NCBI GenBank assembly: GCA_003152315.1
Contig: PLZV01000037.1
Coordinates: forward strand, 41,679-105,678
Length of the DNA stretch: 64,000 bases
Reading direction: 5' to 3'
Source: Verrucomicrobiota bacterium
GTDB lineage: Bacteria > Verrucomicrobiota > Verrucomicrobiia > Palsa-1439
Shown here: positions 5,332-39,260 of the stretch, in pieces
Position numbering within the stretch: the stretch's first letter is position 1
Layout: every line of letters begins with the position of its first letter
Made by a program: the position numbers and the translations under genes
Notes under the pieces: model-generated
Seen by the model: only the letters and a program-made list of their open reading frames with translations
Database searches by the model: none
Told to the model about the DNA's origin: nothing

Positions 5332-6699
5332 ATGCGACCACAACGGAAGTCCAATACACGCCGGATTTTCACTGCGGCAGGAGTGGTGACTGGTTTTGGC
5401 ACCATGAATGACCACACTATCACAATCGGTGAACGCGAGGGCTGGGGTAAACCCCAGCTTTTCGGCATATCTGCCATTGACCAGCGCCAGCACATCTACG
5501 TCATCGGAAAAACTGGTTCTGGTAAGACGACATTGCTGCGCAATTTGATTTTGCAACATATCGCCCTTGGACATGGAGTCGGTTTGATTGATCCCCACGG
5601 GGATTTGGCCGAAGAACTATTGAACCATATTCCTCCGCATCGTGCCGATCATCTAGTATATTTCAATCCGGGCGACATCGAGTTTCCCATAGGGCTTAAT
5701 TTGCTCGCCAATGTCGCCCCCGACGACCGCCATCTCGTGGCCTCGGGCATTGTGAGCGCGTTCAAGGGCATTTGGCGCGACTCATGGGGTCCGCGTCTGG
5801 AATACATCCTGTACAATGCCGTATCGGCACTTCTTGATTGCCGGAATGCCACCCTTTTGGGCGTCAACCGTATGCTTACGGATGACACATTCCGGGCCAA
5901 GGTGATTCGGCAGAGCAAAGACCCATTCATCCGAGCGTTTTGGGCAGAGGAATATGCCGGATACGACGAGCGTTTCAAACGGGAGGCCATTGCACCGATT
6001 CAGAACAAGCTCGGCCAATTCCTCTTGAATCCAGTGGTCCGCAACATTCTCGGCCAGGTCAAAGCGAAGGTGAACATTCCGTTCGTGATGGACAACCAGC
6101 GTCTTTTCATCGCCAATTTGTCCAAAGGCAGGCTTGGACACGACAAAGCAAACTTGCTCGGCTCCCTGCTTACGACTCAATTTCAACTTGGTGCCATGGC
6201 ACGAGCAAACCATCCCGAAGAAGAACGGCGTGACTTTTACCTTTTCATTGACGAGTTCCAGAACTTTTCCACCGATGCGTTTGCTTCGATTCTTGCGGAA
6301 GCGCGCAAGTATCGTCTTTGTTTGACCCTTTCGCATCAATACATAGACCAGCTCCCACTGCCGATTCGTCAGGCGGTCTTTGGCAACGTAGGGACGCTCA
6401 TTGCCTTTCGCATCGGCAGCACCGATGCCGAGGTGATGGAAAAGGAGTTTGGTAATACGATCCCCGCAAGCGTCCTTGCCGACCTTGACCGCTATGAGGC
6501 AGTGGTGAAATTGCTCGTGGAGGGAAGCAACCTCGAATCGTTCCGGGCTAAGATGCTTCCGCCATTAGAAAATCGCATCGGACGGAAGGGCAAACTCATT
6601 GCACGATCACGCGAGCGATTCTCCACTCCGCGTACCAAGATTGATGAAAAGCTGAGTCGGTGGATGGGTGGACTGATTGTACCGAAAATCGACGGGTAA
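5332..6699 (+). CDS. VirD4/TraG/TraD-like P-loop ATPase (coupling-protein-type, FtsK/HerA superfamily), no TM anchor
   Basis: Walker A VIGKTGSGKTTLL, then GLIDPHGD, and Walker B FYLFIDEFQNFST (LDEFxxL-type, as in T4SS coupling proteins). Paralogous to the core of the 20931-24035 protein. An alternative start at 5404 is possible. Confidence 0.65.
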   Translation: MRPQRKSNTRRIFTAAGVVTGFGTMNDHTITIGEREGWGKPQLFGISAIDQRQHIYVIGKTGSGKTTLLRNLILQHIALGHGVGLIDPHGDLAEELLNHIPPHRADHLVYFNPGDIEFPIGLNLLANVAPDDRHLVASGIVSAFKGIWRDSWGPRLEYILYNAVSALLDCRNATLLGVNRMLTDDTFRAKVIRQSKDPFIRAFWAEEYAGYDERFKREAIAPIQNKLGQFLLNPVVRNILGQVKAKVNIPFVMDNQRLFIANLSKGRLGHDKANLLGSLLTTQFQLGAMARANHPEEERRDFYLFIDEFQNFSTDAFASILAEARKYRLCLTLSHQYIDQLPLPIRQAVFGNVGTLIAFRIGSTDAEVMEKEFGNTIPASVLADLDRYEAVVKLLVEGSNLESFRAKMLPPLENRIGRKGKLIARSRERFSTPRTKIDEKLSRWMGGLIVPKIDG

Positions 6700-6720: not shown

Positions 6721-7266
6721 TCATACAGCAGCGCGCTGTGTGGTTTCGTCAAGGCGGCTGTATTCCGAGCCATTGTGCGCACTGACCCAGAGTTCAAGTC
6801 TTTCCATCTGATTTCCAACAATCGTCATGATAAAACAATCTAGTTCGTGCTGAGATTTACGAAAGGCATCTGCCATAGAATTCAAGTCCAACCGAGACGG
6901 TGTCGGTTTCGGTTCCGGATGAGTGTGCCATTCACCGATAAAATGCAACCCCTTATCAAAATATTGTCTAATGAGCCGTCGCTGCAAAATCCGATTCGGA
7001 ATGAACAATGTCCTCCACCGTTTATCGGCCACGTTCGGAGGAGAAGCTTCGACTACCAGAATCAACGGAAAGTCAAATTCTGCAAAGAGAAGCCCGCCAG
7101 CTTCTGGTTCGTCTTCTTTTTGGCGATATGTTGAAAAGATTTCTAATGCTTTCCTAGTCACAATAAGCTCTTGTTTGGAATGTGGAAAAGCAAAGCGGCG
7201 TGAATTTAAGAATTTTTCTGAGCGCATACGCCGCAAGTATTTGATTTGGTCCAATTTTTTCGGCAT
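6721..7266 (-). CDS. JAB/MPN (JAMM) metallopeptidase, Cap3-like deubiquitinase-type
   Basis: Complete JAMM motif: upstream Glu (EAGGLLFAEF) plus EWHTHPEPKPTPSRLD (HxHx7Sx2D). Overlaps the upstream E2-E1 gene, consistent with operon coupling. Confidence 0.8.
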   Translation of the reverse strand: MPKKLDQIKYLRRMRSEKFLNSRRFAFPHSKQELIVTRKALEIFSTYRQKEDEPEAGGLLFAEFDFPLILVVEASPPNVADKRWRTLFIPNRILQRRLIRQYFDKGLHFIGEWHTHPEPKPTPSRLDLNSMADAFRKSQHELDCFIMTIVGNQMERLELWVSAHNGSEYSRLDETTQRAAV

Positions 7267-8993
7267 ATTCTTGAATAGCCAGTACGGCTAACCTCCGGCT
7301 TCCACATTTCTGTGAGATTGGCTTCCACCGATTTAAAATGCTCAGCGCTACTGATCCAAGTATTTAGAAAAGAATCTGGAGAAGGGCTAAGGAGTGATTC
7401 AACGACAATAGACGCAATCATCGAGGCAACCGGCATTAATGCAGTCGGACCATAATGCTGATAGTGGGTGCATCCACCAGGTTCTTTCGAAAAGGGTGTT
7501 TTTCCAAAATCAGCTACTGCCTGACTGAACCGTCCGAATTCATTTGCAGCGCATTCAAAACATCCACCGTTCGGTCCGACAACCAAGCAATGTCCTGCTA
7601 CAGCATGCGGTTCGAGCCAACCCAAAACCAACGGGGACATTTGTATTTTACGTGACAATTCGTTCAACGGGCGCTCACATCGCCACTCACCAGTGGTTGA
7701 GACTACCAAATGGTATTCCGCGAAAAGATTTGGATTAGACCTGAATATATCTCTCCAATCTTTGGGAATGCCTTTAATACTCAGATGAGGCATCTCACGC
7801 GTTAATTCTTCGGCGAGGGCTTCGGCCTTCGAACGTCCTACAGACGACGCTCCCAAGATATGCCGACCAAGATTCTCCCAACCAAGATTGTCATTATCTG
7901 TCAATGTGAGATGGCCGATACCCGCACGACTTAAAAGATGAGCAACATATCCACCCAATGAACCGCATCCGATTAACAAAACAGATTTTTTGGAAAGGTC
8001 TCTGCCATCGCCCCCTCTCGAATGAATCCACTGGTGATCGACCCGACAGACAACGCGTCTTATTACGGCATTGGAGGCAAGCATTCCTACAGCACGTTTG
8101 CGCAATAGATCCGCCGGAATCTTTTCTAAGCGGAAGCCGCGAGTGATCTCAGGTGACTGTCGTAAGTGCCCAAGCACAGGAAAAATAACGCCTCCCAACG
8201 TCACCCCTTCACTTTCCTTTTGAATAAGCAGGACGAGACCTTCCTCAGAACCATTTGCGACGTGTTCTTTTATCAGGTCAGCAACTGAAGAGTCGTTAGT
8301 CCCTGCAAGGGTCAATAAGTCTCTCAGCGCGTTCGGGTAGTCGCCGGGAAGTAGTGGGGGATTCAAACTAATCGCCAAACCAAGCCTGCTCGCTTTTAGT
8401 TCAGAGGGTTTCCCTGTGTGATTTAAAATCCAGCTGTTTATTCGTTCCATCGATGAAGCGACACAAATATATTCTTTGCAGAAGACAACGACAAAACGTT
8501 TGCCAAGTTGTTCCGGTGGATCAATTAGGACAATAGATTGGTCCTGGAGTGTTGCCGAGCGATTCCAATAAGAAGTAAATTCATCACGAAAATCAAGCGG
8601 GTCTGTTCCTTTCAGAATCTTTTCGGCATCATCAAATACGTAACGAACAATGGCTGCCGGGTCCTTGCTGTTAATTGCCGCCGAATTCGGGATAGTACAG
8701 ATAAAACCACGTGCATCTATATGCGGATTTTTAAATACGAGATCTCTCGCATCGGCAATGCAGGCGATAGGGGCTTCATCGGGAAAATCCCGAGGAAGCC
8801 CCACATTTACGATCCATTCCTTATCCAAAATGCGGAACGATTTTCGCCACACAGTAGGACATTCAGCCAGGAGCTGCGGAGCATCCTTTGCTGATACCAG
8901 CTCAAATGCTGAATCCGTGGCCAAATCGGCTTGGACCGCTTCAAGGGCGTGATGAAGGCGCTCTCGCAAAAAGTTTTGCGATTCATCACCCAT
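7206..8993 (-). CDS. E2-E1 fusion protein (N-terminal UBC-like E2, C-terminal ThiF/MoeB-like E1), Cap2-like
   Basis: E2 signature FKNPHIDARGFICTIP (an HPN-like NPH followed by a catalytic Cys). E1 Rossmann LLIGCGSLGGYVAHLL plus TDNDNLGWENLGRH. Zinc motifs CFEC ... CGVC. ATG at 8993 with a GGAGG ribosome-binding site; an alternative GTG sits at 9008. Confidence 0.8.
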   Translation of the reverse strand: MGDESQNFLRERLHHALEAVQADLATDSAFELVSAKDAPQLLAECPTVWRKSFRILDKEWIVNVGLPRDFPDEAPIACIADARDLVFKNPHIDARGFICTIPNSAAINSKDPAAIVRYVFDDAEKILKGTDPLDFRDEFTSYWNRSATLQDQSIVLIDPPEQLGKRFVVVFCKEYICVASSMERINSWILNHTGKPSELKASRLGLAISLNPPLLPGDYPNALRDLLTLAGTNDSSVADLIKEHVANGSEEGLVLLIQKESEGVTLGGVIFPVLGHLRQSPEITRGFRLEKIPADLLRKRAVGMLASNAVIRRVVCRVDHQWIHSRGGDGRDLSKKSVLLIGCGSLGGYVAHLLSRAGIGHLTLTDNDNLGWENLGRHILGASSVGRSKAEALAEELTREMPHLSIKGIPKDWRDIFRSNPNLFAEYHLVVSTTGEWRCERPLNELSRKIQMSPLVLGWLEPHAVAGHCLVVGPNGGCFECAANEFGRFSQAVADFGKTPFSKEPGGCTHYQHYGPTALMPVASMIASIVVESLLSPSPDSFLNTWISSAEHFKSVEANLTEMWKPEVSRTGYSRICRKNWTKSNTCGVCAQKNS

Positions 8994-9354
8994 GCCGACC
9001 GCCTCCACGAAGATCTACCGGACTTGTAGGCGTCTGACGTGCTATGCCCGCGTCGCGGTCAGCAATTTTGCAATCAACACACTCTGGCTGTTCCAAAAGG
9101 TTGTCGTTCGGCTTCCCATCTGCGTGAGATCGAAGAAACGGAGGTTTGCCATTTTCTCGCACCACCAATACTTCGCACTCCTTGCCCGTCGTTTTGTCGA
9201 TTGTATAAAAACCCGCTTTCTGGTTTTCGATGAGAAAAATGGCGTCTTCGCGTGTAAATCGCCATTTTTCCTGGAGATTGCCGACATGCGTGATATGCTC
9301 ATGAGGACTGTGATGATGAGGCTTATTAATACAAGTTATTTGATATTTTTTCAT
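8986..9354 (-). CDS. small His-rich protein with disordered C-terminal tail ending LRGG-GRHG (candidate ubiquitin-like conjugation substrate or precursor)
   Basis: ATG at 9354 with an aggaag ribosome-binding site. Sequence MKKYQITCINKPHHHSPHEHITHVG... ends ...TSPVDLRGGGRHG. Its 3' end overlaps the E2-E1 start by 8 bp. Similarity to any DUF family is uncertain. Confidence 0.55.
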   Translation of the reverse strand: MKKYQITCINKPHHHSPHEHITHVGNLQEKWRFTREDAIFLIENQKAGFYTIDKTTGKECEVLVVRENGKPPFLRSHADGKPNDNLLEQPECVDCKIADRDAGIARQTPTSPVDLRGGGRHG

Positions 9355-9533
9355 GACGTTCGGCTTCCTATAGTTTTTGTTCGGTTGAACTACTTGCGAG
9401 CCTTGACACCTCTCGCGGTTTATTCGCGATACAGTAAGACTTCGCAAAACAGTATGTCAAGCCATCTTTTTGCGAATTTCTTCTGGACAAAACGTCCTTA
9501 GGACTTTAAAAAGCAACATGAAATTATTAAGCC
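9355..9533. promoter_or_regulatory. divergent promoter/operator region between the conjugation-like operon and the HTH-peptidase pair
   Basis: 179-bp AT-richer intergenic region. It contains a perfect 9-bp inverted repeat ttcgcaaaa-N17-ttttgcgaa (9441-9475), a ttgaca -35-like hexamer (about 9398) and short cgcgag/ctcgcg palindromes. Confidence 0.4.
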
Positions 9534-9935
9534 ATGAATTCCGTAGGTGAGCGAATTAAGGCCCGTCGGCTGGAACTGGGGTGGACCCAAGAAGAGTTGT
9601 GCAAAAAGGCAAACATCAGCACAGGCTTTTTATCAGATCTTGAAAATAGCAAGCGTAGTGTAAGCGCCGAAACACTTCTAGGCATTGCGCACGTGCTTTC
9701 GCTCAGTCTCGATTATTTAATGAAGGGCGATTCAACACAAATTCAAACAGCACAAGTTCAATTCCCTGCGAATTTGGCCGAACTTGCAAAGACAGAGAAC
9801 ATCTCGTTCGTCCAAGCCTTGACCGTTTTAGATATGAGAATGCAAATCGTTGCTCACCGAAGCGTGTCAAAATCGGATGACTTGGAGAATTTTGATTGGA
9901 AGAAGTTTTACGATTCGGTCAAAGAGTTCTTATGA
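9534..9935 (+). CDS. XRE-family helix-turn-helix transcriptional regulator (CapH/ImmR-like)
   Basis: N-terminal HTH_XRE signature GERIKARRLELGWTQEELCKKANISTGFLSDLENSKRSVSAETL. Overlaps the downstream peptidase start by ATGA. Confidence 0.8.
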   Translation: MNSVGERIKARRLELGWTQEELCKKANISTGFLSDLENSKRSVSAETLLGIAHVLSLSLDYLMKGDSTQIQTAQVQFPANLAELAKTENISFVQALTVLDMRMQIVAHRSVSKSDDLENFDWKKFYDSVKEFL

Positions 9936-10987
9936 AAAAACTGGATAGCGAATACGAGATCCACAAGCTGGCGGCAGGGCTGAAAGTCGATTGGCAGCAA
10001 AATGCTGTGCAAAATATCATTGCTCTATGCCACGACAAAATCTCTAAATGGACCAAGGGAATTTCTAAAATTCGATCTATCCAAGAACTAGAAGTGCTGG
10101 TTTGCGAAAAGGTGAAATTGGTCTTTGAAGAGATTTACAGAGAAGACGACCTAAAAGCAGTCATCCGAAAGTATGTAAGTTTGGGTGAACCGATTTTTTC
10201 CACGCTTAAAACCGACTTGGACGAGAAGACTTTTGCAACTCTAATTGAAAGACGTAGAATTGATGGCAATTCACAAGATCGATATGTGGCAGTCATTGAT
10301 TGCAGAGGAAGTAAGGCACCGCGGCGCTTTTTTTCGCGATGGCATGAAATTGCTCATTTACTAACACTTCAAGGCCAGCTTCAACTTCCTTTGCATCGTT
10401 CCACCACGGATCGAAGTCCTACGGAAAGACTGATGGATACGATTGCTGGAGAAATCGGATTTTATGATCCTCTTTTCCGCCCTATCTTACGTGATGAAAT
10501 TGCAAAGGAAGGTGGCTTCGCCTTTACCACGGTCGAAAGAGTCAGAGGCCGATTTTGCCCGGAGGCCAGCTTTCAGGCGACGTTAAATGCGTGTGTTAAT
10601 CGGCTTGATGTGCCCATGCTTCTGGTGGAAATTGGTTTGGGGTATAAGAAGGAAGAAGAAAGGCAAATATTTTCTTCCCAGACAACTCTATTTTCTGAGG
10701 CACATCCGAAACCAAAGTTGCGAGTTTCGACAATAATAGGCAATGATAGGGCTCGCGGCACTTCGTTAAAGATTCACCGAAATATGCAGGTTCCTGCCGC
10801 CTCCGTGTTACATCGTTTCTTTTTCAAAGAAGACGATCTCCCCGCAAAAGAGCTAGAGGGTTTTGAAAACCTGAACATATGGCGGCACTCGGACGGCGGA
10901 GCGCTTGCAAACCTTTCAGTTAGAATTCGAGTTCGTCGTTTCGAAAGTTCAGTAATTGCGTTAATTTCGCCGGCGAGGCTTACCTGA
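9932..10987 (+). CDS. ImmA/IrrE-family zinc metallopeptidase (COG2856; CapP/ImmA-like)
   Basis: HExxH motif within RWHEIAHLL. ATGA overlap with the upstream HTH gene gives the canonical HTH plus ImmA-peptidase two-gene module. Confidence 0.75.
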   Translation: MKKLDSEYEIHKLAAGLKVDWQQNAVQNIIALCHDKISKWTKGISKIRSIQELEVLVCEKVKLVFEEIYREDDLKAVIRKYVSLGEPIFSTLKTDLDEKTFATLIERRRIDGNSQDRYVAVIDCRGSKAPRRFFSRWHEIAHLLTLQGQLQLPLHRSTTDRSPTERLMDTIAGEIGFYDPLFRPILRDEIAKEGGFAFTTVERVRGRFCPEASFQATLNACVNRLDVPMLLVEIGLGYKKEEERQIFSSQTTLFSEAHPKPKLRVSTIIGNDRARGTSLKIHRNMQVPAASVLHRFFFKEDDLPAKELEGFENLNIWRHSDGGALANLSVRIRVRRFESSVIALISPARLT

Positions 10988-11009
10988 TATCTCTGGCGGC
11001 GAAGAAAAA

Positions 11010-11090
11010 CAGGGCGGCTGCCTCCCCAGTTTTCCTCTCGACACCTTTTCCTCTCCCGCCTCGCAGCTACCCAGATGGATCGTCTTGGGC
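11010..11090. repeat. copy 1 of an ~80-bp GC-rich imperfect direct repeat
   Basis: gggcggctgcctccccagttttcctctcgacaccttttcc...gctacccagatgg versus copy 2 gggcggctgccgccccagttttcctctagacgcctttccc...gctacgcagatgc, about 80% identity. Confidence 0.7.
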
Positions 11091-11223
11091 TGCATACGCT
11101 GGGGCTTCACCCCACCTTCGCTACGTCGACCCCCCGGACCCCTTCGACGGCGCAGGCGTTGTTCCGCCCCGCTCCTTCCGCCCAATCCGACCACCAGGGC
11201 TTAACGCTGCTACCAGAGGAACA

Positions 11224-11305
11224 CACGGGCGGCTGCCGCCCCAGTTTTCCTCTAGACGCCTTTCCCCCACCCGAGGCGCGGCTACGCAGATGCTCGCCCC
11301 GTCTG
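11224..11305. repeat. copy 2 of the ~80-bp GC-rich imperfect direct repeat
   Basis: See copy 1. The two copies are about 215 bp apart in a roughly 520-bp noncoding gap. Confidence 0.7.
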
Positions 11306-11508: not shown

Positions 11509-12585
11509 CTATGCACCGGCCATGATGGCCGCACGCGTCTTCGGACCGACAATGCCAGTCTGACTGATATGGTGACCTTTCTGATACTTCATAATCGCAG
11601 CCTCAGTTAAACTTCCAAAAAGCCCTTTCACATTACCGGTCGGTATGACCAAAAATCCTTTTTCTACAAGGAATGTCTGCACGGCGCTTACATCGCTGCC
11701 GGTATCGCCAATGTGGAGATCATGCGTCAGCACCAGCGAAGCTGAAGCGGTAGGGGCGACAACGCCTCCCGTGTCGGCAACAACGGCTGCCTCTGTCAAC
11801 GGACCGGCTGTGCCAGTAGGAGTGATCCGCCTTGTGCGCTGATAGCTCTCTACCGCCGTCCTGGTAAGCAAGCCGTAAAGACCATAGGCAATGCCGGCTG
11901 GCATGTTGAGAAGCCCTTTACTGACCAGGAACTTCTGCAATGCAGTGACATCGGGGCCACTATCGCCGACTTGGAGATTTCGAGAGTATGGGGAGCTTGG
12001 TCCACTGACGACTGGTGCAGTAGAGGGTGTGCAGGTCAATCCTGCGGGGCAATTCGACACCGAAGGAGCATTCAGGGAATTAAGATACGCCGTGGTAGAA
12101 GCCCCCGGAGCGAGAAGAGTGGCAAGCACGCTTGGCGAGACAGAGCCACCACCTATAGAAACACTTCCACCACTGGATTCTGGCGGAGGCGGCGAAGGTG
12201 GGCTTGAATTTGCACAAATCGTAGCTGATGGAGTGATCGTATTCGTGACTGTGCTACCGCCGGAATATGAAAGCGAGAGGGTCGAAGCGGAACCCGTGCA
12301 CACGTTTGAAGTGACATTAGACTGCACGTCAGTCGATAACTGGTTCAGAGTCGGAGAAGAGACGGTGATAGAGGAGCCAGAAGCAAGTGTCACTGTGAAA
12401 TTAGATGCATTGACGGTGATAGACTGGATGACGGCGCTTGAGCCGGAGATGTTCAGGGTATAGCCGCCGACGAGAATGTGGACATCCGTGGTCAGTGATA
12501 CATCGTTGAAGGCGGCAAGGGCTATAATAGGAACGAAGAACCCAACTAGGATAATCGTTGATAGTTTAGATATTTGGTGAGACAT
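11509..12585 (-). CDS. secreted protein with Ig-like Ser/Thr-rich region and two C-terminal peptidoglycan-binding (PG_binding_1) domains
   Basis: TM/signal segment, then two repeats of the type LQVGDSGPDVTALQKFLVSKGLL...GLYGLLTRTAVESYQ and LHIGDTGSDVSAVQTFLVEKGFL...GLFGSLTEAAIMKYQ. The most likely ATG is at 12585; the ORF track extends to 12648. Confidence 0.6.
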   Translation of the reverse strand: MSHQISKLSTIILVGFFVPIIALAAFNDVSLTTDVHILVGGYTLNISGSSAVIQSITVNASNFTVTLASGSSITVSSPTLNQLSTDVQSNVTSNVCTGSASTLSLSYSGGSTVTNTITPSATICANSSPPSPPPPESSGGSVSIGGGSVSPSVLATLLAPGASTTAYLNSLNAPSVSNCPAGLTCTPSTAPVVSGPSSPYSRNLQVGDSGPDVTALQKFLVSKGLLNMPAGIAYGLYGLLTRTAVESYQRTRRITPTGTAGPLTEAAVVADTGGVVAPTASASLVLTHDLHIGDTGSDVSAVQTFLVEKGFLVIPTGNVKGLFGSLTEAAIMKYQKGHHISQTGIVGPKTRAAIMAGA

Positions 12586-12598
12586 AATCTGCTTGCGG

Positions 12599-13945
12599 CT
12601 AATACGTAGGGAACCCCGACAAATCAACCGGCGTGAGCGTTTGTCCACCGAGACTCGTTATGGCGGCGTTGATAGCCGATATATTACCCACTATATCCGA
12701 CGCTCCGTCAGGAAAATAACCCGATTTGTAATACCATGTCCCCAACGCAACGGCCTGTCCATTGATGACCATCAAAATAGGAGAGCCACTGTCCCCCGAG
12801 GCTATGGGCAAGTACCAACCCGCATACTGGCTCGTATTCGGGGAATAGATGTACTGCCCCGGCTGAATGATGGCAACAACGTCGCTGTCGAATGCCACAG
12901 CCGATCCTATGCTCAGACTTCTGTATTGATTCGTGAAAAGAACGAGCGGATGTGCGTAAGAAATGGCAGCTTTCGTCATCTTTGTCCCGTCTGTTCCATC
13001 AGAAATGCCGACACTACCCGAGGCGAATACTTTCGCCGGTGTGATTCCAGAAGGAACGGCTGACGAGAGCTTCATCACTTGTATGTCCACGCCGACATGA
13101 GCGCTTGCAGTGATGGTCCTTGAAACGGTCGTGTTGTCATTCTTGACGAAATAAACCGTGGTGCCATTCGGTATATACGCGTGATTGGATTGGATCAAAA
13201 TATCAGGAGTCACGAGGATCCCATTAAATCTGGCACCCCCATACGGATTGCTTCCGGTCGGTGGAGGGCTGTCCCAATCGCTCCAAACGGGAATAGCGGT
13301 CAGGTCGACGGCACCAGTAAAGATGTTTGGATTTCTGGTATATACGTGATTGACATCATCGGTCGAGGAGTAGATGTTCTGCGTGCTTGCCGACGGCGTC
13401 TTGCCTGAGATCATGGCACTGATCTCGCTGAAGATGTCGCTTCCGAGCGATCCCGATACCAGGCTGTTAAAAATCGTGTTGTACGAATTATGGGTGTGCA
13501 ACATCGGGCATTCGATGCCGCGTGTAAGCCGGCCAATCGTAACCCCGAATGTTGCAGTGCCGTCGCCGACATACGACACTACGCCATTGAAATCCACGGT
13601 GCCGTAGGACGGATCTTTGGCGCTGAAAATAGGCGTGACATTATCAGCGCCAAGCACGGTTAAGACGCATGAATATATGACGCTGCCCGAATTATAGAAA
13701 TTATATACGACATCATTTGTGTTGATCGTACCGTTTGATGAACCCATGGTGATCGTACTTGACGATGTGCTGGCAATAGAGAAATCCTCTATTTGCGCTC
13801 CGCTCAAAGCAGAACCGAAAAGCTGCGGGGCAGTGGTTGTCGCAACGCTCGTATAGTGTATCGTAAAATAAGCCTGCGCATTGCCATGAACCAACAGTGA
13901 GAAACCGACTGCGACAACACATCTTATTATGGTCTTCATTCTCAT
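12599..13945 (-). CDS. secreted trypsin-like (S1 family) serine peptidase
   Basis: Signal peptide MRMKTIIRCVVAVGFSLLVHGNAQA. Canonical GDSGSP active-site serine motif in the C-terminal domain. Confidence 0.65.
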   Translation of the reverse strand: MRMKTIIRCVVAVGFSLLVHGNAQAYFTIHYTSVATTTAPQLFGSALSGAQIEDFSIASTSSSTITMGSSNGTINTNDVVYNFYNSGSVIYSCVLTVLGADNVTPIFSAKDPSYGTVDFNGVVSYVGDGTATFGVTIGRLTRGIECPMLHTHNSYNTIFNSLVSGSLGSDIFSEISAMISGKTPSASTQNIYSSTDDVNHVYTRNPNIFTGAVDLTAIPVWSDWDSPPPTGSNPYGGARFNGILVTPDILIQSNHAYIPNGTTVYFVKNDNTTVSRTITASAHVGVDIQVMKLSSAVPSGITPAKVFASGSVGISDGTDGTKMTKAAISYAHPLVLFTNQYRSLSIGSAVAFDSDVVAIIQPGQYIYSPNTSQYAGWYLPIASGDSGSPILMVINGQAVALGTWYYKSGYFPDGASDIVGNISAINAAITSLGGQTLTPVDLSGFPTY

Positions 13946-13946
13946 G

Positions 13947-15578
13947 CTATTTTATGAGAGTCCACGGTTCGGAACCCATGCACAACCACAAATGATGGTT
14001 CGCTTTGTTATAGACGCTCGTCCCTTCAAGCGTCGAATTGCAGGTGAATCCGGTGGATGTTGACGTAACGGCTCCGCGATAACCGCCGTTTATATCGACG
14101 CCAACTGAAGGCGCGGGATTACCAACGCCTATTTTGCCGCCATCAAATACAATGATATTGGGAATATCACCAGATTGTTGATCTCCAGTGACAACGCTAT
14201 TGGTAAATATGAAGTCACCGCCTTCTCCATTCTGGAATAGCATTATTCCATCCCCAAGTTGGAGATCACCAGAACTATCTTCGGACGCTATCCTTTGCGT
14301 GTCAGCGAAACCACTACTGGGAGTGAGATGGTCAAATACTATTCCACTACTATCACTGCTCAAATTTATACTACCTGTGCTTGTCAAAGTAGTTCCAGTA
14401 ACTGTATCTGCCGACGTAGTTCCATTATATGTCGCCGTCGTTCCACTCAATGACCACAGTCCGAGCGGATTCAGATTTGCAACTGTCTGCGAGCCATCGC
14501 CTATTTTCCCGTGTTTCGTGTCAGTCTCATAAACCATCTCGCCTGCTGCGGGTATTATGCCGGATAAGGCTGAGGCGGTTCCTTCTCGCGGAATAACAGC
14601 GGCATTCAAGTTTCCGCTGCTATCAAGGAGCGTATTGTTGCCGATTTTGATCGTGCCACCCGGCGCAAGGGTGAGGCTCGGCGCAGTCAGCACAGTCCCG
14701 TCAAATGTGAAGCCGGCATTACTGCCAAAAGAACCGCTTGCATTGAACTGCACCGTGCCCGAAGCCGCGGCAGGGCTAGTCGCGCCGCCCCCGCCGCTCG
14801 ACAGACATGTTCCATTTACGGCAAAGCATCCGGCGGCGATATTGATGCCGTTCCCGACCGTGGAGGTCGCGGAGGAACCGGTCAGATTGAGATAGGTTCC
14901 TTGTATTCCACCAGAAAACGTCGTTGTGCCGGTGTTGGAGAATGCCTGCAAGCCGGTAAATGTATTCGCGGTGTATGCCTTCGGGATAGTCGATGAACCA
15001 TTGATATATGAATTGACATCAGCGTTTGTGTAATTTGCTGATCCACCGCCGACGCACGAACCGTTTATCGAGAAACACCCTCCGGTCAGATTGATACCGT
15101 TCGCAAAGGTGGAACTGGCTAATGAGGACGTGATATTGAGCAGAAGCGTCTGGAGCCCTCCGGCAAATGTCGAAGTAGCTGTCGATGAAGTAGCCGTGTA
15201 GGATGCGGCTGTGGGAGTCCCTGTGGCAGTCAGCGTCGAAGAGTTGATCCACGAAGAGAGCATGCCGGCCACGCCGCCCGACAGACTACCGCCTCCGCTT
15301 CCTCCGACGCACGAACCGTTTATGGAGAAACAGCCGGAAGTAAGATTCAATCCGCCGGCAAAGGTCGAGGTAGATACATTGGTTGATGCCAGATTCGTCA
15401 CCGTGGTCGTACCGGCTGAGAGCGTGCTTCCAAGCGTTGCCGCTCCGGAAACATTGAGCGCACCGCCGGTGACGATGTCGGTGCTGATCGTGGTCGCGGC
15501 AAAAGCACTGTGAACAACCAAGATAGAGAATACGACAACTACAAAGGTTGTCGAGATGACCTGTGTATATGGCTTCAT
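13947..15578 (-). CDS. secreted Gly/Thr-rich repetitive protein with recurring Cys-containing motif (fiber/adhesin-like)
   Basis: Signal/TM segment, then at least four repeats containing G(C)F(S/A)(I/V)NG(S/T)C(V/L)(G/S)G embedded in T/S/G-rich beta-repeat sequence. Confidence 0.55.
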   Translation of the reverse strand: MKPYTQVISTTFVVVVFSILVVHSAFAATTISTDIVTGGALNVSGAATLGSTLSAGTTTVTNLASTNVSTSTFAGGLNLTSGCFSINGSCVGGSGGGSLSGGVAGMLSSWINSSTLTATGTPTAASYTATSSTATSTFAGGLQTLLLNITSSLASSTFANGINLTGGCFSINGSCVGGGSANYTNADVNSYINGSSTIPKAYTANTFTGLQAFSNTGTTTFSGGIQGTYLNLTGSSATSTVGNGINIAAGCFAVNGTCLSSGGGGATSPAAASGTVQFNASGSFGSNAGFTFDGTVLTAPSLTLAPGGTIKIGNNTLLDSSGNLNAAVIPREGTASALSGIIPAAGEMVYETDTKHGKIGDGSQTVANLNPLGLWSLSGTTATYNGTTSADTVTGTTLTSTGSINLSSDSSGIVFDHLTPSSGFADTQRIASEDSSGDLQLGDGIMLFQNGEGGDFIFTNSVVTGDQQSGDIPNIIVFDGGKIGVGNPAPSVGVDINGGYRGAVTSTSTGFTCNSTLEGTSVYNKANHHLWLCMGSEPWTLIK

Positions 15579-15877
15579 TGGTCTTATAGGGTACGATTAA
15601 AGAAACGACTGATTTGTAAGAAACGTACCAGTTATTGTAGCACTTCTTGTGTTGTGTATTATCCCCAGATTTGATGCGGTGTAAGCGGGTGCCTCCCTTC
15701 AATATCATCACGGATAGCGAGATACGCATAAGCAAAGGAGGAAGTCATTCTCACAACGGCCAGCGACTTGCATTAAAGCGCAAACCTTGACGCCTTCTTC
15801 GTTTGCTCCCTCTCCGGCAAGGTGGAGCGATGGATTCCCGTCTTCCACGTTTCAAACGCACCACCACCGTTGCTCGC

Positions 15878-16735
15878 ATGGCACTGACGGAGCGCGACCG
15901 CCAAATCATCCGGCTCGTTCACCGGCATCGTTTTCTCCGTTCTCCGCAAATTGTCGCCTTGATCGGCGGCAGTTCGCAGCAGCTTTTGCGACGATTACAA
16001 TTGCTGTATCACCATGGATATTTGGAACGCCCACGCGCCCAGATTGATTATTACCACCAGGGCGGCTCCCGCCACATCATCTACGGTTTAGGGAATAAGG
16101 GAGGGGGGATGTTGTTGAAACAAGAACTTGGTGTTGCTTTTCGTGAATTCTCATGGGGCGAGAAGAACCGCGCCGTTGGCCGGATGTTCCTTGAACATGC
16201 GCTCTTAGTCTCGGATGTGATGGTGACGATTGAACTTGCTTGCCGTGAGCGTGGAATTCGGCTCGTTACCGAGAGAGAACTTGTGCTTCCCGGCAAGCAC
16301 CAACCGTTCCGGTGGAGAGTGAACATACACAACCACGTGAAACTTGGCGTCATCCCGGATCGCGTGTTCGCCTTGGAACTTCTCGATGCCAGCGGCTCAA
16401 GCCGGCGGGCATATTTCTTTCTTGAAGCTGACCGGGGCACGATGCCGGTCACGCGTCGAAATCTTTCCCAGACTTCCTTCTACCGCAAGCTCCTCGCCTA
16501 TGAAGCAACCTGGACGCAAAACTTGCATCGCATACGTTTTGGTTTCCATCGCTTCCGCGTGCTCACCGTCACCACCAGTACCGCGCGGGTGAAGTCACTT
16601 GTAGATGCCTGTTCACAATTGGAACGCGGGCATGGACTCTTTCTGTTTGCCGACCGGACAATTTTGTCTGGTGATATGTTTTCCTCGATATGGCAGACCG
16701 GCAAGCCGGGCGAAACCGGCAGTTTGTTGGATTAG
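15878..16735 (+). CDS. replication-relaxation family protein (plasmid/ICE type)
   Basis: N-terminal winged-HTH-like LTERDRQIIRLVHRHRFLRSPQIVAL typical of the replication-relaxation family. The ORF track extends to an upstream ATG at 15803. Confidence 0.6.
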   Translation: MALTERDRQIIRLVHRHRFLRSPQIVALIGGSSQQLLRRLQLLYHHGYLERPRAQIDYYHQGGSRHIIYGLGNKGGGMLLKQELGVAFREFSWGEKNRAVGRMFLEHALLVSDVMVTIELACRERGIRLVTERELVLPGKHQPFRWRVNIHNHVKLGVIPDRVFALELLDASGSSRRAYFFLEADRGTMPVTRRNLSQTSFYRKLLAYEATWTQNLHRIRFGFHRFRVLTVTTSTARVKSLVDACSQLERGHGLFLFADRTILSGDMFSSIWQTGKPGETGSLLD

Positions 16736-16865: not shown

Positions 16866-17894
16866 ATGCCAAAATCAAAATTCGTTGACTTCAAAGCCGT
16901 GAAAGAGGCCATCACCATAGAACAGGTGCTTGAGCACTACGGCTTGCTTGACCAGTTCAAACGGAGCGGAGACAGCCTCAGTGGGCCATGCCCGATCCAC
17001 AAGGGAGAGAACTCGACTCAGTTCCGTGTCAGCATTTCCAAAAACTGCTGGAACTGTTTCGGGGAATGCAAACGCGGTGGCAACATCCTCGACTTTGTCA
17101 GTCTCACGGAGGACGTAAGCATCCGAGAAGCGGCCATCCGCATTTCGGATTGGTTCAAGCCCACCTTCGACAAGCCAGCGCCGAAACCAGAGTCGCCGAA
17201 CGCGGATCAGAAACCGAAGCAGGGCAAAGCACCTCGCGCAAAGAGCACACCGAAGCCGAGCAGCGACGCGCAAGAAACCGGGCCAAATAAGCCACTGGGT
17301 TTCGAGCTTCGCAACTTGGACGCCGAGCATCCGTATTTGCTAGGGCGTGGCCTCACCGAGGAAGGCATCGCGGAGTTTGGCCTGGGTTACTGCGACAACG
17401 GCAGCATGCTGGGTCGCATCGTCATTCCGATCCAGAACGTGGCCGGTCAGATTGTGGCGTACGCAGGCCGTTGGCCGGGCGATCCACCCGAAGACACGCC
17501 AAAGTACAAGTTCCCCGCCGGGTTCAGGAAGTCGATGGAGGTATTCAACCTTCATCGTGCGCAACAGGTTGGCACCACCGTGCCGCTGGTGATCGTCGAA
17601 GGTTTCTTCGACTGCATTCATCTCTGGGAAATTGGTTTGGAGCGAGTGGTTGGCCTCATGGGCAGCCAATTGTCGAAGCCCCAGGAAGAGTTGATTGTCA
17701 AATCACTTCACGAGGATGACCACATAATCGTGATGCTCGACGAGGACGAAGCGGGCCGCACCGGACGCGAGCAGGTGTTGCAACGACTTGCGATACGAGC
17801 GTTCGTAAAAGTCTTCCAATTCCCGCAGGAAGGTCAACAGCCCACCGACTTGTCGGGCGATGAATTGCGGGAATTGGTCGGAGGTGCGGAGTGA
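16866..17894 (+). CDS. DNA primase, CHC2 zinc finger + Toprim domain (DnaG/TraC-like)
   Basis: CHC2 finger GPCPIHKGENSTQFRVSISKNCWNCFGEC. Toprim signature VIVEGFFDCIH ... MLDEDEAG. AGGAG ribosome-binding site. Confidence 0.8.
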   Translation: MPKSKFVDFKAVKEAITIEQVLEHYGLLDQFKRSGDSLSGPCPIHKGENSTQFRVSISKNCWNCFGECKRGGNILDFVSLTEDVSIREAAIRISDWFKPTFDKPAPKPESPNADQKPKQGKAPRAKSTPKPSSDAQETGPNKPLGFELRNLDAEHPYLLGRGLTEEGIAEFGLGYCDNGSMLGRIVIPIQNVAGQIVAYAGRWPGDPPEDTPKYKFPAGFRKSMEVFNLHRAQQVGTTVPLVIVEGFFDCIHLWEIGLERVVGLMGSQLSKPQEELIVKSLHEDDHIIVMLDEDEAGRTGREQVLQRLAIRAFVKVFQFPQEGQQPTDLSGDELRELVGGAE

Positions 17895-18205
17895 AGACCT
17901 ACGAAGGAAGACGTTTCCCCCTCGGATTGGAAGTCACGGTCAACGGTCAGTCGCTCGATCCTCGTTTCGACTTGTGGGATCATAGTCCCACGGGTTTCGA
18001 GTGGGGTTACGCTGGTAGCGGCCCCGCGCAACTGGCACTGGCGTTACTCGCAGACCATCTCGACGATGACGAGCGGGCAATCACCCTACACCAGGACTTC
18101 AAATGGGCTGTGGTGACGAAGTTGCCACACTCCTGGACACTTACGACCGACGACATTGAGCGGACGTTGCAATCGCTTGTCGGAAAAGTGGGCAGTCATG
18201 TCTGA
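17891..18205 (+). CDS. hypothetical protein (mobile-element associated)
   Basis: GTGA overlap with the primase stop and ATGTCTGA overlap with the next gene. No recognizable motif. Confidence 0.4.
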   Translation: MKTYEGRRFPLGLEVTVNGQSLDPRFDLWDHSPTGFEWGYAGSGPAQLALALLADHLDDDERAITLHQDFKWAVVTKLPHSWTLTTDDIERTLQSLVGKVGSHV

Positions 18206-18485
18206 CACACTCGTGACCACGCCCAAGTTCCTCTTGGGTCAGACCGTCATCACCGCAAACGCGAACGCGGTCTTGCCCGAGTTGGACGTGATAGTGGCCC
18301 TGCAACGTCACCAAAGCGGTGACTGGGGCGACGTGGACAACCACGACCGCCAGATAAACGAGGACGACCTTCGTAGCGGAGGCAGGCTCTTCTCCGTGTA
18401 TCACACCACCGGTGGCACCAAGTTCTGGATCATCACCGAATGGGATCACTCAGTAACCACGGTCCTGATGCCGAAAGATTACTAA
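18198..18485 (+). CDS. hypothetical protein
   Basis: Translationally coupled to the upstream ORF and followed by a terminator. No recognizable motif. Confidence 0.4.
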   Translation: MSDTLVTTPKFLLGQTVITANANAVLPELDVIVALQRHQSGDWGDVDNHDRQINEDDLRSGGRLFSVYHTTGGTKFWIITEWDHSVTTVLMPKDY

Positions 18486-18492
18486 TCAAAAG

Positions 18493-18518
18493 GGCGATCC
18501 ATTCGGGTCGCCTTTTTT
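18493..18518 (+). terminator. rho-independent terminator
   Basis: Hairpin ggcga-tccattcggg-tcgcc followed by TTTTTT. Confidence 0.5.
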
Positions 18519-18631
18519 CATGCTTGCCGCGCCCGGCAAGACTGCACGTCTTTGTTGAAACTGCCCCGGGCCATACGCTTCAGAGTGGGTTCACAGGGTT
18601 CTTTCCAAAACAACAACCACAGGAGAAGTGT

Positions 18632-19489
18632 ATGAAAAATCAAGCGTATGAACGTATCACCGAACGGATTGTTTCCTTGCTCGCGCAAGGCACCGTTCCT
18701 TGGCACAAGCCATGGCAGGCAAAAACTGGTTGGCCGCGAAACTATGTCTCTCAAAAAACGTATCGCGGTATCAATGTGTTCTTGCTCTCCGCCATGAGCT
18801 ACGAATCACCTTGCTGGCTCACGTTCCGTCAGGCATCACAGCTTGGCGGCACCGTCCGCAAGGGCGAGAAGGCGTGTCCCGTCGTCTTCTGGAAATCCCT
18901 GAAGATTGCGGACAAGGAATCTGGCGAGGACAAGAAAATTCCCCTGCTTCGCATCTATCACGTCTTCAATGCAGCCCAATGTGACGGATTGAATGATGCT
19001 CCACCCGTGACGGATGAAATCACCACGGTCAAACCGGCAGAGATTGTGGCGCACATGCCAGAGCCACCCGTCATCAAACACGGCATGGCCTGTGCCTTCT
19101 ATTCACCGCTCGAAGATTCCATCGGGATGCCCTTGCTGGAACGGTTCGATTCTGAGGAATGTTACTACGCCACCTTGTTCCACGAACTCATTCATTCCAC
19201 CGGCCACGAGAAGCGGTTGAAGCGGGCAACACTCGCTGAAAACAGGGGCTTCGGTTCCGATCCCTACTGTAAAGAGGAATTGATTGCCGAAATGGGCGCA
19301 GCGTTTCTGTGCGGGCAGGCCGAGATTGCCGAGCGGACGATTGATAGTTCTGCTGCGTATATCAAAGGTTGGCTTGAGCGGTTGCGTAATGACAAGACGC
19401 TGATTATACAGGCGGCAGCGCAGGCGCAGAAGGCGGCAGACTTAATTCTTGGCCGTACGTTTCAAGAAAGCGAGGCCGCCCATGACTGA
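18632..19489 (+). CDS. ardC: ArdC-like antirestriction protein (N-terminal ssDNA-binding DUF1738-type domain + C-terminal zincin metalloprotease)
   Basis: N-terminal TVPWHKPW...YRGINVFLL typical of ArdC. C-terminal HExxH motif within LFHELIHSTGHEKRL. AGGAG ribosome-binding site before the ATG at 18632. Confidence 0.8.
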   Translation: MKNQAYERITERIVSLLAQGTVPWHKPWQAKTGWPRNYVSQKTYRGINVFLLSAMSYESPCWLTFRQASQLGGTVRKGEKACPVVFWKSLKIADKESGEDKKIPLLRIYHVFNAAQCDGLNDAPPVTDEITTVKPAEIVAHMPEPPVIKHGMACAFYSPLEDSIGMPLLERFDSEECYYATLFHELIHSTGHEKRLKRATLAENRGFGSDPYCKEELIAEMGAAFLCGQAEIAERTIDSSAAYIKGWLERLRNDKTLIIQAAAQAQKAADLILGRTFQESEAAHD

Positions 19490-20930: not shown

Positions 20931-23900
20931 ATGTCCCAGCTCGACGAACAATTGAGCGCAGAGTTTCACCGCTGGGAACAACGTGGACGCGGCTGGCAGG
21001 TGTTTTCCGAACCCGTTCAACCCGAACCGGCTTTTGTCCCTTTCAATGGCCATTATCTCCCTGCCACAGCGCCCATTGATGACGGAGCCAGGCCGACCTT
21101 TTTGAGTTCGCTGGTGCAAAAAGTGAGCCGAAGGTTAAGCACCGAAACGGTAGCACCACCGGCTATGCCCGAACCCGAAGAAGAGCTAGAACCGACCGCA
21201 CTCATCCGTGAATCACTGGTGGAATTACAGGCATCGCTCCCGGACAAGCTCGATATTTCCAAGGAAACGTTCGAGCAGTTTCTTCTGAATCTTTCATTGT
21301 GCCGCGAACCCATCGCCTTTGAACTGCTTGGCACGCATACAAAGGTTGCGGCGCAGTTTGTTGCCAGTAAGAGCGACGTTGCGTTGCTCCGCCGCCAGTT
21401 GCAGGCGTATTTTCCAGAGGCCGTGTTTGTCACCCGTGAAGGCGGCTTGGATCAAGCATGGGATACGAGCCAGGGCGATGAAGTCTTGGCGGTGGAATTC
21501 GGCCTTAAACACGAATTCATGCTGCCGCTTGCCAGTGGGAGACTTGACCCGTTCATTGGGATCGTGGGCGCGCTCTCAGAGTTGCAGCCGGGTGAACTAG
21601 GGCTTTTCCAAGTCCTGTTCCAGCCGGTGCAGCATCCGTGGGCGGAAAACATTGTGTTTTCCGTAACGCATGCTGACGGCAAGCCGTTTTTCATCAATTC
21701 ACCGGAACTGGCCGGGGCAGCGGAAAACAAAGTCGCCCACCCACTATATGCCGCCGTTGTCCGCATTCTGCTTCGCGTAGGTGAGTTTGACCGCCTGTTG
21801 CAACTGGCCCGCGACCTGGCCGGATCACTGCGCGTCTTCGCGCACCAGAACGGCAACGAACTCATCCCGCTTCATAACGACGATTACCCGTTCGAGGAAC
21901 ACATTGAGGACGTGTTGCGCCGCCAGACCCGGCGAACGGGAATGTTGTTGAACAGCGACGAGCTTACCGGCTTTGTCCATCTGCCGTCGAGTGCCGTTCG
22001 CTCGCCCGTTTTTCAACGGCAAACGACCAAGACCAAGGCGGCACCCGCCATAGTCCGCAAGCGGGGCCTGTTGCTCGGCACTAATGACCATGCAGGCGAA
22101 ATAGTTGAAGTCAGATTGTCCGCCGAACAGCGCACACGGCACACGCACGTGATCGGTGCAAGCGGCACGGGCAAGTCCACACTGCTTTTCAATCTCATCC
22201 GGCAGGACATTGAAAACGGTGAAGGCGTGGCCGTGCTTGACCCTCACGGTGATTTGATTGACCGCATTTGCGGCATCATCCCGCCGGAGAGGATTGACGA
22301 CGTGGTATTGCTCGACCCGGCGGACGATCAATTTTCAATCGGATTCAATATTCTCTCGGCCCATTCCGATTTGGAGAAAAATCTTTTGGCGTCCGACTTG
22401 GTTGCCGTCTTCCAACGTCTCTCGACCAGTTGGGGCGACCAGATGAACAGCGTGCTACAAAATGCGATTCTTGCGTTTCTGGAAAGCGACCGGCGCGGCA
22501 CCATTGCTGACGTGCGCCGATTCCTGATTGAACCCGCCTTTCGGAATGAATTCCTGAAATCCGTCAAAGACTCCGAAGTCGTCTATTACTGGCAGAAAAG
22601 TTTTCCCCACCTCTCCGGCAACAAATCCATTGGCTCGATTTTGACGAGGCTCGACACATTCCTTGCCCAAAAGCCCATCCGCCACATGGTCTCCCAGCGG
22701 GAGAACCGGCTGGATTTCGCGCACATCATGGATACTGGCAAAATCTTTCTGGCGAAACTGCCGGAGGGACTTTTGGGCCGGGAAAACTCATATTTGCTCG
22801 GCACATTGATGGTGTCAAAGTTCCAGCAGATTGCCATGAGCCGGCAGGCGCAGCAGATCGCCGCCCGGCGGGACTACTGGCTTTACATCGACGAGTTCGC
22901 CAATTTCATCACGCCCTCTATGGCGGAGATTTTGAGCGGGGCGCGAAAGTATCGCATCGGCCTGACGCTGGCACATCACGAGTTGCATCAGTTGCAGCGC
23001 AATCCCGAAGTGGCGAGCGCCGTCATGTCGCATCCCTACACGCGAATCGTGTTTCGTGTTGGCGATGACGACGCTAAGAAACTTGCCGAAAGTTTTTCAT
23101 ATTTCGAGGCGAAGGATTTGCGGAACTTGGAGACCGGACAAGCCATTGTGAGGGTAGAGCGTGGCGATTTTGATTTTAACCTCACCGTTCCTTTGCCGGA
23201 GAAACCGGACGAAGCGGCAGCCACCGCACGACGGCAGGAAGTCATAACGTGTTCGAGAAAAAAATATGGCACAGCACGGGCGGACATTGAGACCCAGCTT
23301 GCACAGTCGCGGGCAACACTTGATGGGCAGCCTGTCAGTCGCACCATTTCCAATCCGCCACTGGCGTTGAAGACATCCGTTCCCGACCGCACGCCAGCAC
23401 ATTCGGAAATGCCGGAACCTGCGGGACCACCGAAGGCGGCAGTGCCGCCCGACAAGGATGAAGCCACGCCGTCGAAAGCGCCACAGACGGTTACTGGTGG
23501 CCGTCCGCAAGGATCACCACGCGATTTAGGCCGGGGCGGGGCGCAGCACCAAGCCACTCAGAAACGCATCAAAGAGGCAGCGGAAGGCCTTGGTTTCCGC
23601 AGTATCATTGAAAAGCCGGTGTTGGATGGTCAGGGGAGCGTGGACTTGTGGTTGGAGCGCACCGGCCAGGAAATCGCCTGTGAAATCTCCATTACAACGA
23701 CCATTGACCATGAAGTAGGCAATGTCGCCAAGTGCTTGAAGGCCGGGCTTCCGAAAGTGGCCGTGATTTGTCTGGACGAGGAACGCTTGCAGAAGATCAG
23801 CAATGCCGTTTCCGGCAGTCTTGGCGCAACATTAGCGGCGCAGGTTGAGTATTTCCAGCCCGCCGCGTTCATCGCGCATTTGAAGGCGTTGCCGCCGCCA

Positions 23901-38882: not shown

Positions 38883-38964
38883 GCGGACGTGGCGGAATTG
38901 GCAGACGCGCAGGTCTTAGGAGCCTGTGGAGAAATCCGTGTGGGTTCGAGTCCCTCCGTCCGCA
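38883..38964 (+). tRNA. tRNA-Leu (anticodon TAG)
   Basis: Acceptor stem gcggacg/cgtccgc. Anticodon stem-loop caggt-cTTAGga-gcctg. Long variable arm. T-arm ggttcgagtccc. Confidence 0.85.
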
Positions 38965-39225: not shown

Positions 39226-39260
39226 CCATTTTCATCTGTTTGTCAGCAAGGGAGGTCAGC

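Follow-up and report, generated by a model that had tools for sequence, protein, structure and literature searches.

What does a small protein whose C-terminus carries the ubiquitin-like motif LRGG do at the head of an operon that also encodes a fused E2-E1 enzyme and a JAB peptidase, and which of its glycines would the E2-E1 activate? The operon lies in a stretch of 64,000 nucleotides (the window) of contig PLZV01000037.1, assigned to a Verrucomicrobiota bacterium. A preliminary description of the window had taken the protein for a conjugation substrate or ubiquitin-like precursor from which the JAB peptidase would remove the last four residues, GRHG. The analysis points to a different kind of substrate. 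With a probability of roughly 0.7, we consider the three genes to make up a conjugation system of ubiquitination-like kind that goes back to an operon of type II CBASS (antiphage signaling based on cyclic oligonucleotides), its mechanism being deduced from homology to the CBASS enzymes Cap2 and Cap3. The body of the CBASS nucleotidyltransferase of the cGAS/DncV-like kind (CD-NTase) and the nucleotide-activated effector would have been lost, a DUF3892 domain would stand in their place, and the CD-NTase's final ~25 codons, encoding the tail recognized by Cap2, would have been kept.

Translation and gene order agree with the preliminary description in that the small protein is the product of the leading gene in a set of three that overlap and run in one direction (small protein, E2-E1, JAB; Table 1) and ends in LRGG followed by GRHG. 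The 122-aa protein reads MKKYQITCINKPHHHSPHEHITH...TSPVDLRGGGRHG, with the stop codon after TSPVDLRGGGRHG; its C-terminus is also given as SPVDLRGGGRHG. An AGGAAG Shine-Dalgarno-like motif is found 9 nt 5' of the ATG. A longer, 153-aa open reading frame from a TTG at 9447 was rejected, as homologs begin at the MKKY/MPEY position. Between the small gene's stop codon and the E2-E1 ATG there is an 8-nt overlap (cATGGGTGA); a second overlap, of 22 nt, joins the end of the E2-E1 gene to the JAB gene, provided that the latter begins at M14, as in JAB homologs. No gene 3' of the JAB gene is conserved across loci; the operon consists of three genes only.

The small protein belongs to Pfam family PF13031, DUF3892 (58.5 bits, above the gathering cutoff of 22.3), with residues 5 to 88 corresponding to profile positions 1 to 69 of 71. 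In an AlphaFold2 model built from a 30-sequence alignment, residues 1 to ~97 are confidently folded and residues ~100 to 122 have a predicted local distance difference test score (pLDDT) of 45 to 51, which suggests a disordered tail. Foldseek matched the model to no beta-grasp protein, and to no PDB or viral entry significantly, in keeping with the earlier view that the protein is not a classical beta-grasp protein. Weak, nonsignificant matches to the C-terminal domain of hibernation promoting factor (HPF-CTD) are compatible with the view of DUF3892 as a double-stranded RNA-binding domain (dsRBD)/HPF-like module, which is fused to Min-Wnt effectors and for which Aravind's group proposed a role in RNA or ribosome sensing (10.1101/2025.01.14.632903). 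Conserved columns of the domain are C8, H18-E-H-I-T-H23, ADG..NDNLL, C92 and C95, and the signature that persists beyond the close subfamily is HEHITH plus two or three cysteines. The HHH run that had been read as a sign of metal binding is kept only within the close subfamily; the pattern of conservation suggests that C8, H18/H20/H23 and C92/C95 might form a metal site.

Cap2-type E2-E1 proteins are bacterial relatives of Atg7-type conjugation enzymes. The 595-aa E2-E1 of the window matches the PADLOC model of CBASS Cap2 over its full length, its best PDB matches are Cap2 entries, and the E1-like proteins MccB, MoeB and ThiF are among its PDB relatives. Across 112 homologs, conservation is 100% for the E2 motif PH...C99, containing the E2 catalytic cysteine C99, and equally for the adenylation motifs G342xGSxG347, D366 and N374/R377/H378 and for two CxxC pairs. 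The JAB protein matches the PADLOC model of Cap3 and also the NCBIfam Cap3 model (E 3e-17, 63 bits, below the 200-bit equivalog cutoff), and its JAMM motif is intact (E55...H114-T-H116-x7-S124-x2-D127).

The origin of the tail is indicated by the closest CBASS counterparts of these enzymes. E2-E1 relatives at 37 to 53% identity are encoded in canonical type II CBASS operons composed of a SAVED, TIR or DUF6602 effector, a CD-NTase, Cap2 and Cap3, where the CD-NTase gene occupies the same position as the DUF3892 gene in the window; in four of five such sister operons, its overlap with Cap2 is likewise 8 nt long. All five CD-NTase tails fit the pattern VD-x-[RKN]-G-[GD]-G-R-[FYL]-G, ending ...GLVSQVPKSPVDPRGGGRFG (L090), ...AKPDSPVDIKGDGRFG (L091), ...EPNNAVDLNGGGRYG (L092), ...TPSKVVDHRGGGRFG (L093) and ...ISNQTPNSPVDLRGGGRLG (L174), compared with ...ARQTPTSPVDLRGGGRHG in the window DUF3892 protein. 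For L174, 14 of the last 16 residues are identical to those of the window protein (...QTPNSPVDLRGGGRLG against ...QTPTSPVDLRGGGRHG). The positions of LRGG differ among the sister tails (PRGG, IKGD, LNGG and HRGG, as in IKGDGRFG), while the terminal G-R-aromatic/Leu-G is retained, or GR[FYLH]G with the window histidine included. The resemblance of LRGG to ubiquitin is thus incidental. The Gly-Gly pair, the conservation of which the preliminary description had proposed to assess by alignment, is invariant in 20 DUF3892 homologs, but its position is not kept in the homologous CD-NTase tails.

In type II CD-NTases, the disordered, conserved C-terminus docks in the adenylation site of Cap2; what is adenylated, thioesterified and conjugated, without processing, is the final residue encoded, which is Gly or Ala in 1,583 sequences; and Cap3 cuts exactly after that residue, with scarless deconjugation (10.1101/2022.03.31.486616; PMC10097602; PMC11153139). 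By this precedent, the reactive residue of the window protein is expected to be the terminal Gly122, the predicted adenylation and conjugation site, and not Gly118. The ubiquitin-like precursor of the preliminary description, in which the JAB enzyme removes GRHG, exposes LRGG and leaves Gly118 to be adenylated and conjugated, has in its favor that LRGG is identical to the ubiquitin C-terminus and that the JAB peptidases of Bil and Bub systems process pre-proteins (PMC11601596). It is at odds with the variation of LRGG and the retention of the last four positions in the CD-NTase tails, with the scarless chemistry of Cap3, and with a substrate fold that is not a beta-grasp.

Selection on the tail bears on the same choice. 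In 20 homologs with 59 to 85% identity, the last eight residues, LRGGGRHG, are invariant and the linker preceding them varies. Among 11 distinct DNA versions, each codon of VDLRGGGR and of the final G is represented by two to four synonymous codons, with a lone conservative D-to-E change, which indicates purifying selection in the reading frame of the small protein itself. The histidine codon alone does not vary: it is CAT throughout, since c-ATG-g provides the E2-E1 gene with its start codon. Conservation of the tail as a side effect of the overlapping E2-E1 start was considered and set aside, as it accounts only for this CAT codon and the other codons vary synonymously. GRHG is therefore as invariant as LRGG and under purifying selection, whereas a discarded propeptide would normally drift, and we regard cleavage within the tail to expose Gly118 as unlikely.

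The tail and the enzymes occur together. A HMMER search of 1.84 billion cluster representatives returned 513 DUF3892 relatives, nearly all of ~90 to 101 aa and tail-less; one protein from this search (P0395, 3483 aa) contains six DUF3892-like stretches at 28% identity and looks like a repeat array of the domain. We compared 170 DUF3892 loci from genomes and metagenomes, 20 tail-bearing and 150 tail-less. An E2-E1 gene is directly downstream in 19 of the 20 tail-bearing loci, and the contig of the remaining one ends 169 nt past the stop codon. No E2-E1 was found anywhere in the 150 tail-less loci, 98 of which have at least 2.5 kb of downstream sequence (Fisher p = 3e-22, for loci that share ancestry and are not phylogenetically independent). 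The association of the small protein with this operon in other genomes, which the preliminary description had made a point to check, is thus borne out. A further locus found separately, L175, also has a tail-bearing DUF3892 gene with an E2-E1 gene; the gene caller had missed the former, which is displaced in public gene calls by an opposite-strand call (L175:4600-5000). Similarly, the JAB gene is intact by tblastn in L002-L004, yet uncalled, so protein-database counts of the system are too low. In a neighbor-joining tree, the DUF3892-associated E2-E1 proteins group together as a single clade, 22 sequences in all, that is nested within the CBASS Cap2 proteins, which fits a single in-frame replacement of the CD-NTase body by DUF3892 in the lineage of the window. 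The Cap2-substrate type of the tail, its strict co-occurrence with the E2-E1 and JAB genes and the purifying selection on it make it very probable that the protein is, as had been suggested, a conjugation substrate of the neighboring E2-E1.

The same architecture has emerged a second time. A distant DUF3892 protein, P0316, 43% identical to that of the window, ends ...IPNKPGGFA, and the CBASS cyclase of B. cereus, which has the C-terminus KPGGFA, is conjugated through it to PspA (PMC11153139). In both contigs that carry it, L176 (6001-8589) and L177 (1894-2945), an E2-E1 gene comes after the P0316 gene and overlaps it by 4 nt; the E2-E1 of L176 is complete (596 aa) with a JAB gene next to it, and the L177 contig ends inside the E2-E1 gene. 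The L176 enzymes belong to different CBASS clades (Cap2 PDLC00855, E 6e-188; Cap3 PDLC00893, E 2e-57), and the E2-E1 shares only 33% identity with the window enzyme over 95 residues. Coupling of DUF3892 to Cap2 and Cap3 therefore arose at least twice, each time with a tail suited to the Cap2 clade, and in our judgment of the sequences no other comparative argument for DUF3892 as a genuine substrate is as strong as this recurrence with a clade-matched tail. The KPGGFA terminus has no internal GG-plus-extension logic, a further difficulty for the ubiquitin-like precursor. Upstream in L176 is a gene for a 1145-aa UvrD/PD-(D/E)XK helicase-nuclease that is GajB-like.

A decaying CBASS remnant, in which DUF3892 replaced the CD-NTase by recombination, the tail is a fossil and Cap2 and Cap3 are idle, would explain why neither the operon nor the window contains a CD-NTase or an effector: tblastn of the window with five sister-clade CD-NTases matches only the tail itself, and there is no hit to a SAVED effector in the window. 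That the lineage is rare and found on mobile elements could be read in the same way. A decaying operon would not be expected to persist across different genomic contexts at 53 to 72% identity of the E2-E1 and 59 to 85% identity of DUF3892, to change its tail synonymously and keep the catalytic residues of both enzymes intact, or to arise independently with another Cap2 clade, and we give this explanation very little credence.

In the conjugation system that we propose, the Cap2-like E2-E1 would bind the disordered tail and adenylate the carboxylate of the encoded Gly122, a thioester would be relayed from the E1 cysteine to C99 of the E2 domain, and the DUF3892 protein would be ligated to lysines of one or more target proteins. 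The Cap3-like JAB enzyme would cleave precisely after Gly122 and so reverse conjugation. Adenylation might instead serve a C-terminal chemical modification of the MccB/ThiF type, attachment to a lipid or other nonprotein target, or a pseudo-substrate that regulates the E2-E1, with no protein conjugation. The presence of MccB, MoeB and ThiF among the structural relatives would fit such an outcome, and Jenson et al. noted that a nonprotein target of cGAS conjugation is not excludable (PMC10097602). However, an E2 domain with an invariant cysteine and a conserved isopeptidase are sensible only for transfer and its reversal, and protein-lysine conjugates have been mapped for three homologous CBASS systems (PMC10097602; PMC11153139), which leaves adenylation without protein conjugation improbable.

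Since the system has no cyclase and no effector, DUF3892 itself would be the functional payload, as a sensor or inhibitor for which conjugation sets activity or location, or as a tag. Conjugation could prime or localize DUF3892 as cGASylation primes CD-NTases; alternatively, as in Bil, the output could lie in the tag itself. In a more specific version of the latter, DUF3892 is a ubiquitin surrogate whose covalent attachment is the immune output: it would be stapled to phage proteins or to host machinery such as ribosomes, block assembly or translation, and be removed by the JAB enzyme. We regard this as possible although doubtful. If true, it would be a Cap2 system free of signaling that had converged on Bil in function and had arisen at least twice, a CD-NTase tail having been grafted onto DUF3892.

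Several points weigh against the proposed conjugation system. All of its mechanistic steps are drawn from homology. In the structure of Cap2 with a CD-NTase, Cap2 is touched by the body of the CD-NTase as well (PMC12355090), a contact that DUF3892 cannot reproduce, so recognition through the tail alone is an assumption. Processing by the JAB enzyme before activation may also be compatible with the sequence data. The E1 cysteine is narrowed to candidates, C508 or the C478/C481 pair. The neighbor-joining E2-E1 tree is midpoint-rooted and carries no support values. Finally, the tail-bearing form is confined to metagenomic sequences (about 20 protein clusters): none was found among 185,579 species-representative genomes, which contain tail-less orthologs only, and no relative was found in viral contigs.

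Table 1. Features of the conjugation operon, its regulators and the surrounding mobile element (window coordinates).
Feature	Coordinates	Strand	Basis
DUF3892 gene with C-terminal Cap2-type tail, predicted conjugation substrate	8986..9354	-	translation 122 aa; PF13031 residues 5-88, E 9e-16; 20 full-length homologs
DUF3892 domain, residues 1-97, folded body	9064..9354	-	AlphaFold2 pLDDT 82-90 over residues 1-90; conserved columns; tail-less orthologs stop at ~residue 92-101
Tail, residues 98-122, predicted disordered	8989..9063	-	pLDDT 45-51; variable linker, then VDLRGGGRHG at 8989-9018
Cap2-like E2-E1 fusion, 595 aa from ATG at 8993	7206..8993	-	PADLOC PDLC00836, E 2e-138; Pfam Prok-E2_B + ThiF; PDB 7tsq/7to3
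Cap3-like JAB/JAMM isopeptidase, likely start M14 at 7227, giving 168 aa	6721..7266	-	PADLOC PDLC00891, E 3e-50; Pfam Prok-JAB; JAMM motif
Divergent intergenic control region, candidate repressor sites	9355..9533	.	repeat search
CapH-like XRE-family helix-turn-helix (HTH) repressor, 133 aa	9534..9935	+	Pfam HTH_3, E 1.5e-14; PADLOC capH, E 1e-8
CapP/IrrE-like HExxH metallopeptidase with C-terminal GAF-like domain, 351 aa from ATG at 9932	9932..10987	+	AlphaFold2 model; Foldseek PprI/IrrE
Large serine recombinase	163-2004
TrwB-like ATPase, 455 aa, ends ...KIDG	5332-6699	+
Replic_Relax	15803-16735
Primase	16866-17894
DUF6166	17891-18205
ArdC	18440-19489
TrwB-like ATPase	20931-24035
Large serine recombinase	24374-25864

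Divergently upstream of the operon is a pair of genes for an XRE-family HTH protein and a metallopeptidase/GAF protein, the arrangement of the CBASS regulators CapH and CapP of Lau et al. (10.1101/2022.04.27.489752); the stop codon of the first overlaps the start of the second as ATGA. The 351-aa protein has no Pfam hit, and the PADLOC scan listed no capP model, so its assignment as CapP-like is not made at the sequence level. Its H138-E-I-A-H142 motif is invariant, and its AlphaFold2 model (pLDDT 89) matches Deinococcus IrrE/PprI (Foldseek E 5e-7 to 6e-6, probability 1.0). A 48% identical partner lies beside another operon with a tail-bearing DUF3892 gene (L175). A 65% identical homolog of the 351-aa protein, with its HTH partner, lies divergently 5' of a type III CBASS operon (AAA/Trip13-like, Cap8, HORMA and SMODS; L180:2679-7056). 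A TrwB-like ATPase and a Replic_Relax gene are near that operon, so that an element backbone like that of the window carries other defense cargo there. The intergenic control region contains a direct repeat, TTCGCGATACAGTA/TTCGCAAAACAGTA, at 9423-9454 and an 18-nt imperfect inverted repeat at 9432-9485; the repeats at 9423-9485 are candidate repressor operators. A scan for promoters (sigma-70 consensus) and terminators gave nothing above chance. Transcription of the operon would be under the divergent CapH-like repressor and the CapP/IrrE-like metallopeptidase, and from this kind of control its expression would probably be responsive to DNA damage or single-stranded DNA. A 77-nt direct repeat 3' of the CapP-like gene (11001-11077 and 11216-11292; 79% identical, 215 nt apart) has no Rfam match.

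The operon and its regulators are carried by a mobile element. Probably an integrative mobilizable element, the initial ~26 kb of the window (163-25864) includes two large serine recombinase genes (Table 1), and the operon would be cargo of this element, most likely for defense against phages or other mobile elements. The 455-aa ATPase convergent with the operon, which the preliminary description had named as a weaker alternative target for its terminal glycine, does end in ...KIDG. It is a TraD/VirD4/TrwB-like coupling protein encoded on the opposite strand, it is not found in the other loci of the family, and it forms part of the transfer genes of the element, and we reject it as a component or target of the system. 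On the minus strand at 11509-15578 are three consecutive genes for large proteins with apparent N-terminal hydrophobic segments that are putatively signal-like. One is a 543-aa Gly/Ser/Thr-rich protein with repeated STFAGG..LT.GCFSINGSCVGG units and a match to Mtd_N, the domain found N-terminally in the phage major tropism determinant (E 1.5e-7); the others are a 448-aa protein with no Pfam hit and a 379-aa protein with two PG_binding_1 domains. An Rfam scan of the window returned two tRNAs only, tRNA-Leu(tag) and tRNA-Gly(gcc), at 38883-39228. The tRNA-Gly gene overlaps the mechanical start of a 1043-aa DUF2339 open reading frame (39192-42323), the real start of which is therefore further downstream.

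Use of the Cap2 tail, Cap2 and Cap3 with a ~95-aa domain in place of a cyclase, and with no effector, would separate conjugation from nucleotide signaling in a natural system. The operon offers a minimal three-gene model in which to ask what Cap2 conjugation does and to what, and its ~25-residue tail may be a portable "conjugate-me" tag of possible use as a tool. It also gives a functional handle on DUF3892, a widespread defense-island family, and that the pairing originated twice independently speaks for its being adaptive and not accidental. We found no description of a DUF3892-Cap2-Cap3 system in the literature searched (on DUF3892, on Cap2/Cap3 outside CBASS and on 6A-MBL), although Burroughs and Aravind 2020 (PMC7685563), a paper that deals with DUF3892, may contain a prior mention; a conjugation system of DUF3892 with Cap2-like and Cap3-like enzymes and without nucleotide signaling is apparently undescribed.

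Among known systems, type II CBASS is the nearest. The E2-E1 and JAB proteins fall within the diversity of Cap2 and Cap3, the gene order of substrate, Cap2 and Cap3 with overlapping stop and start codons is shared, and so are a substrate that is not a beta-grasp protein, a disordered tail with a common motif ending in Gly, and the optional CapH/CapP regulators. Unlike type II CBASS, the window has no CD-NTase, cyclic-nucleotide signal or effector, and the body of the substrate is a DUF3892 domain of ~95 aa with no recognizable enzymatic fold, so the locus should not be filed as CBASS. CapH/CapP with DUF3892-only operons were reported by Lau et al., who credited them to Burroughs and Aravind 2020 (10.1101/2022.04.27.489752). 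Such cassettes, controlled by CapH/CapP or by an HTH protein and a metallopeptidase, encode proteins of the same family (55 to 68% identical to that of the window) under HTH and HExxH-peptidase control, often in defense or restriction-modification islands; the tail-less orthologs (42 to 68% identical) are typically at the end of the cassette and lack a conserved downstream partner. In contrast to the window protein, these proteins stop after the domain (about 90-101 aa), and in none of the 150 loci do they have an E2-E1/JAB neighbor.

The Cap2-like E2-E1/JAB module is known with CD-NTases, Pycsar cyclases and metallo-beta-lactamase (MBL) proteins (PMC11601596), and according to a 2025 review no ubiquitin-like protein (Ubl) transferase other than Cap2 is known to have a non-beta-grasp protein as its substrate (PMC12355090). 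Type II Pycsar and 6A-MBL resemble the window system in showing that the module is portable among non-beta-grasp substrates (PMC11601596), but their substrates are a pyrimidine cyclase and an MBL-fold protein, respectively. In 6A-MBL, moreover, E2, E1 and JAB form one polypeptide, whereas the window has a separate JAB gene and no MBL gene, and its E2-E1 scores 77.6 bits against the 6A-MBL cap2_3 model NF058523, which has a 320-bit cutoff. Bil differs from the window system in that its E1 and E2 are distinct proteins and its Ubl has a true beta-grasp fold and is sometimes made as a precursor, in place of a fused Atg7-like E2-E1 and a non-beta-grasp substrate. The two have in common a small protein that is conjugated by E1 and E2 activities, as would occur with DUF3892, and removed by a JAB enzyme, and since conjugation is the antiviral output of Bil, the analogy may extend to function.

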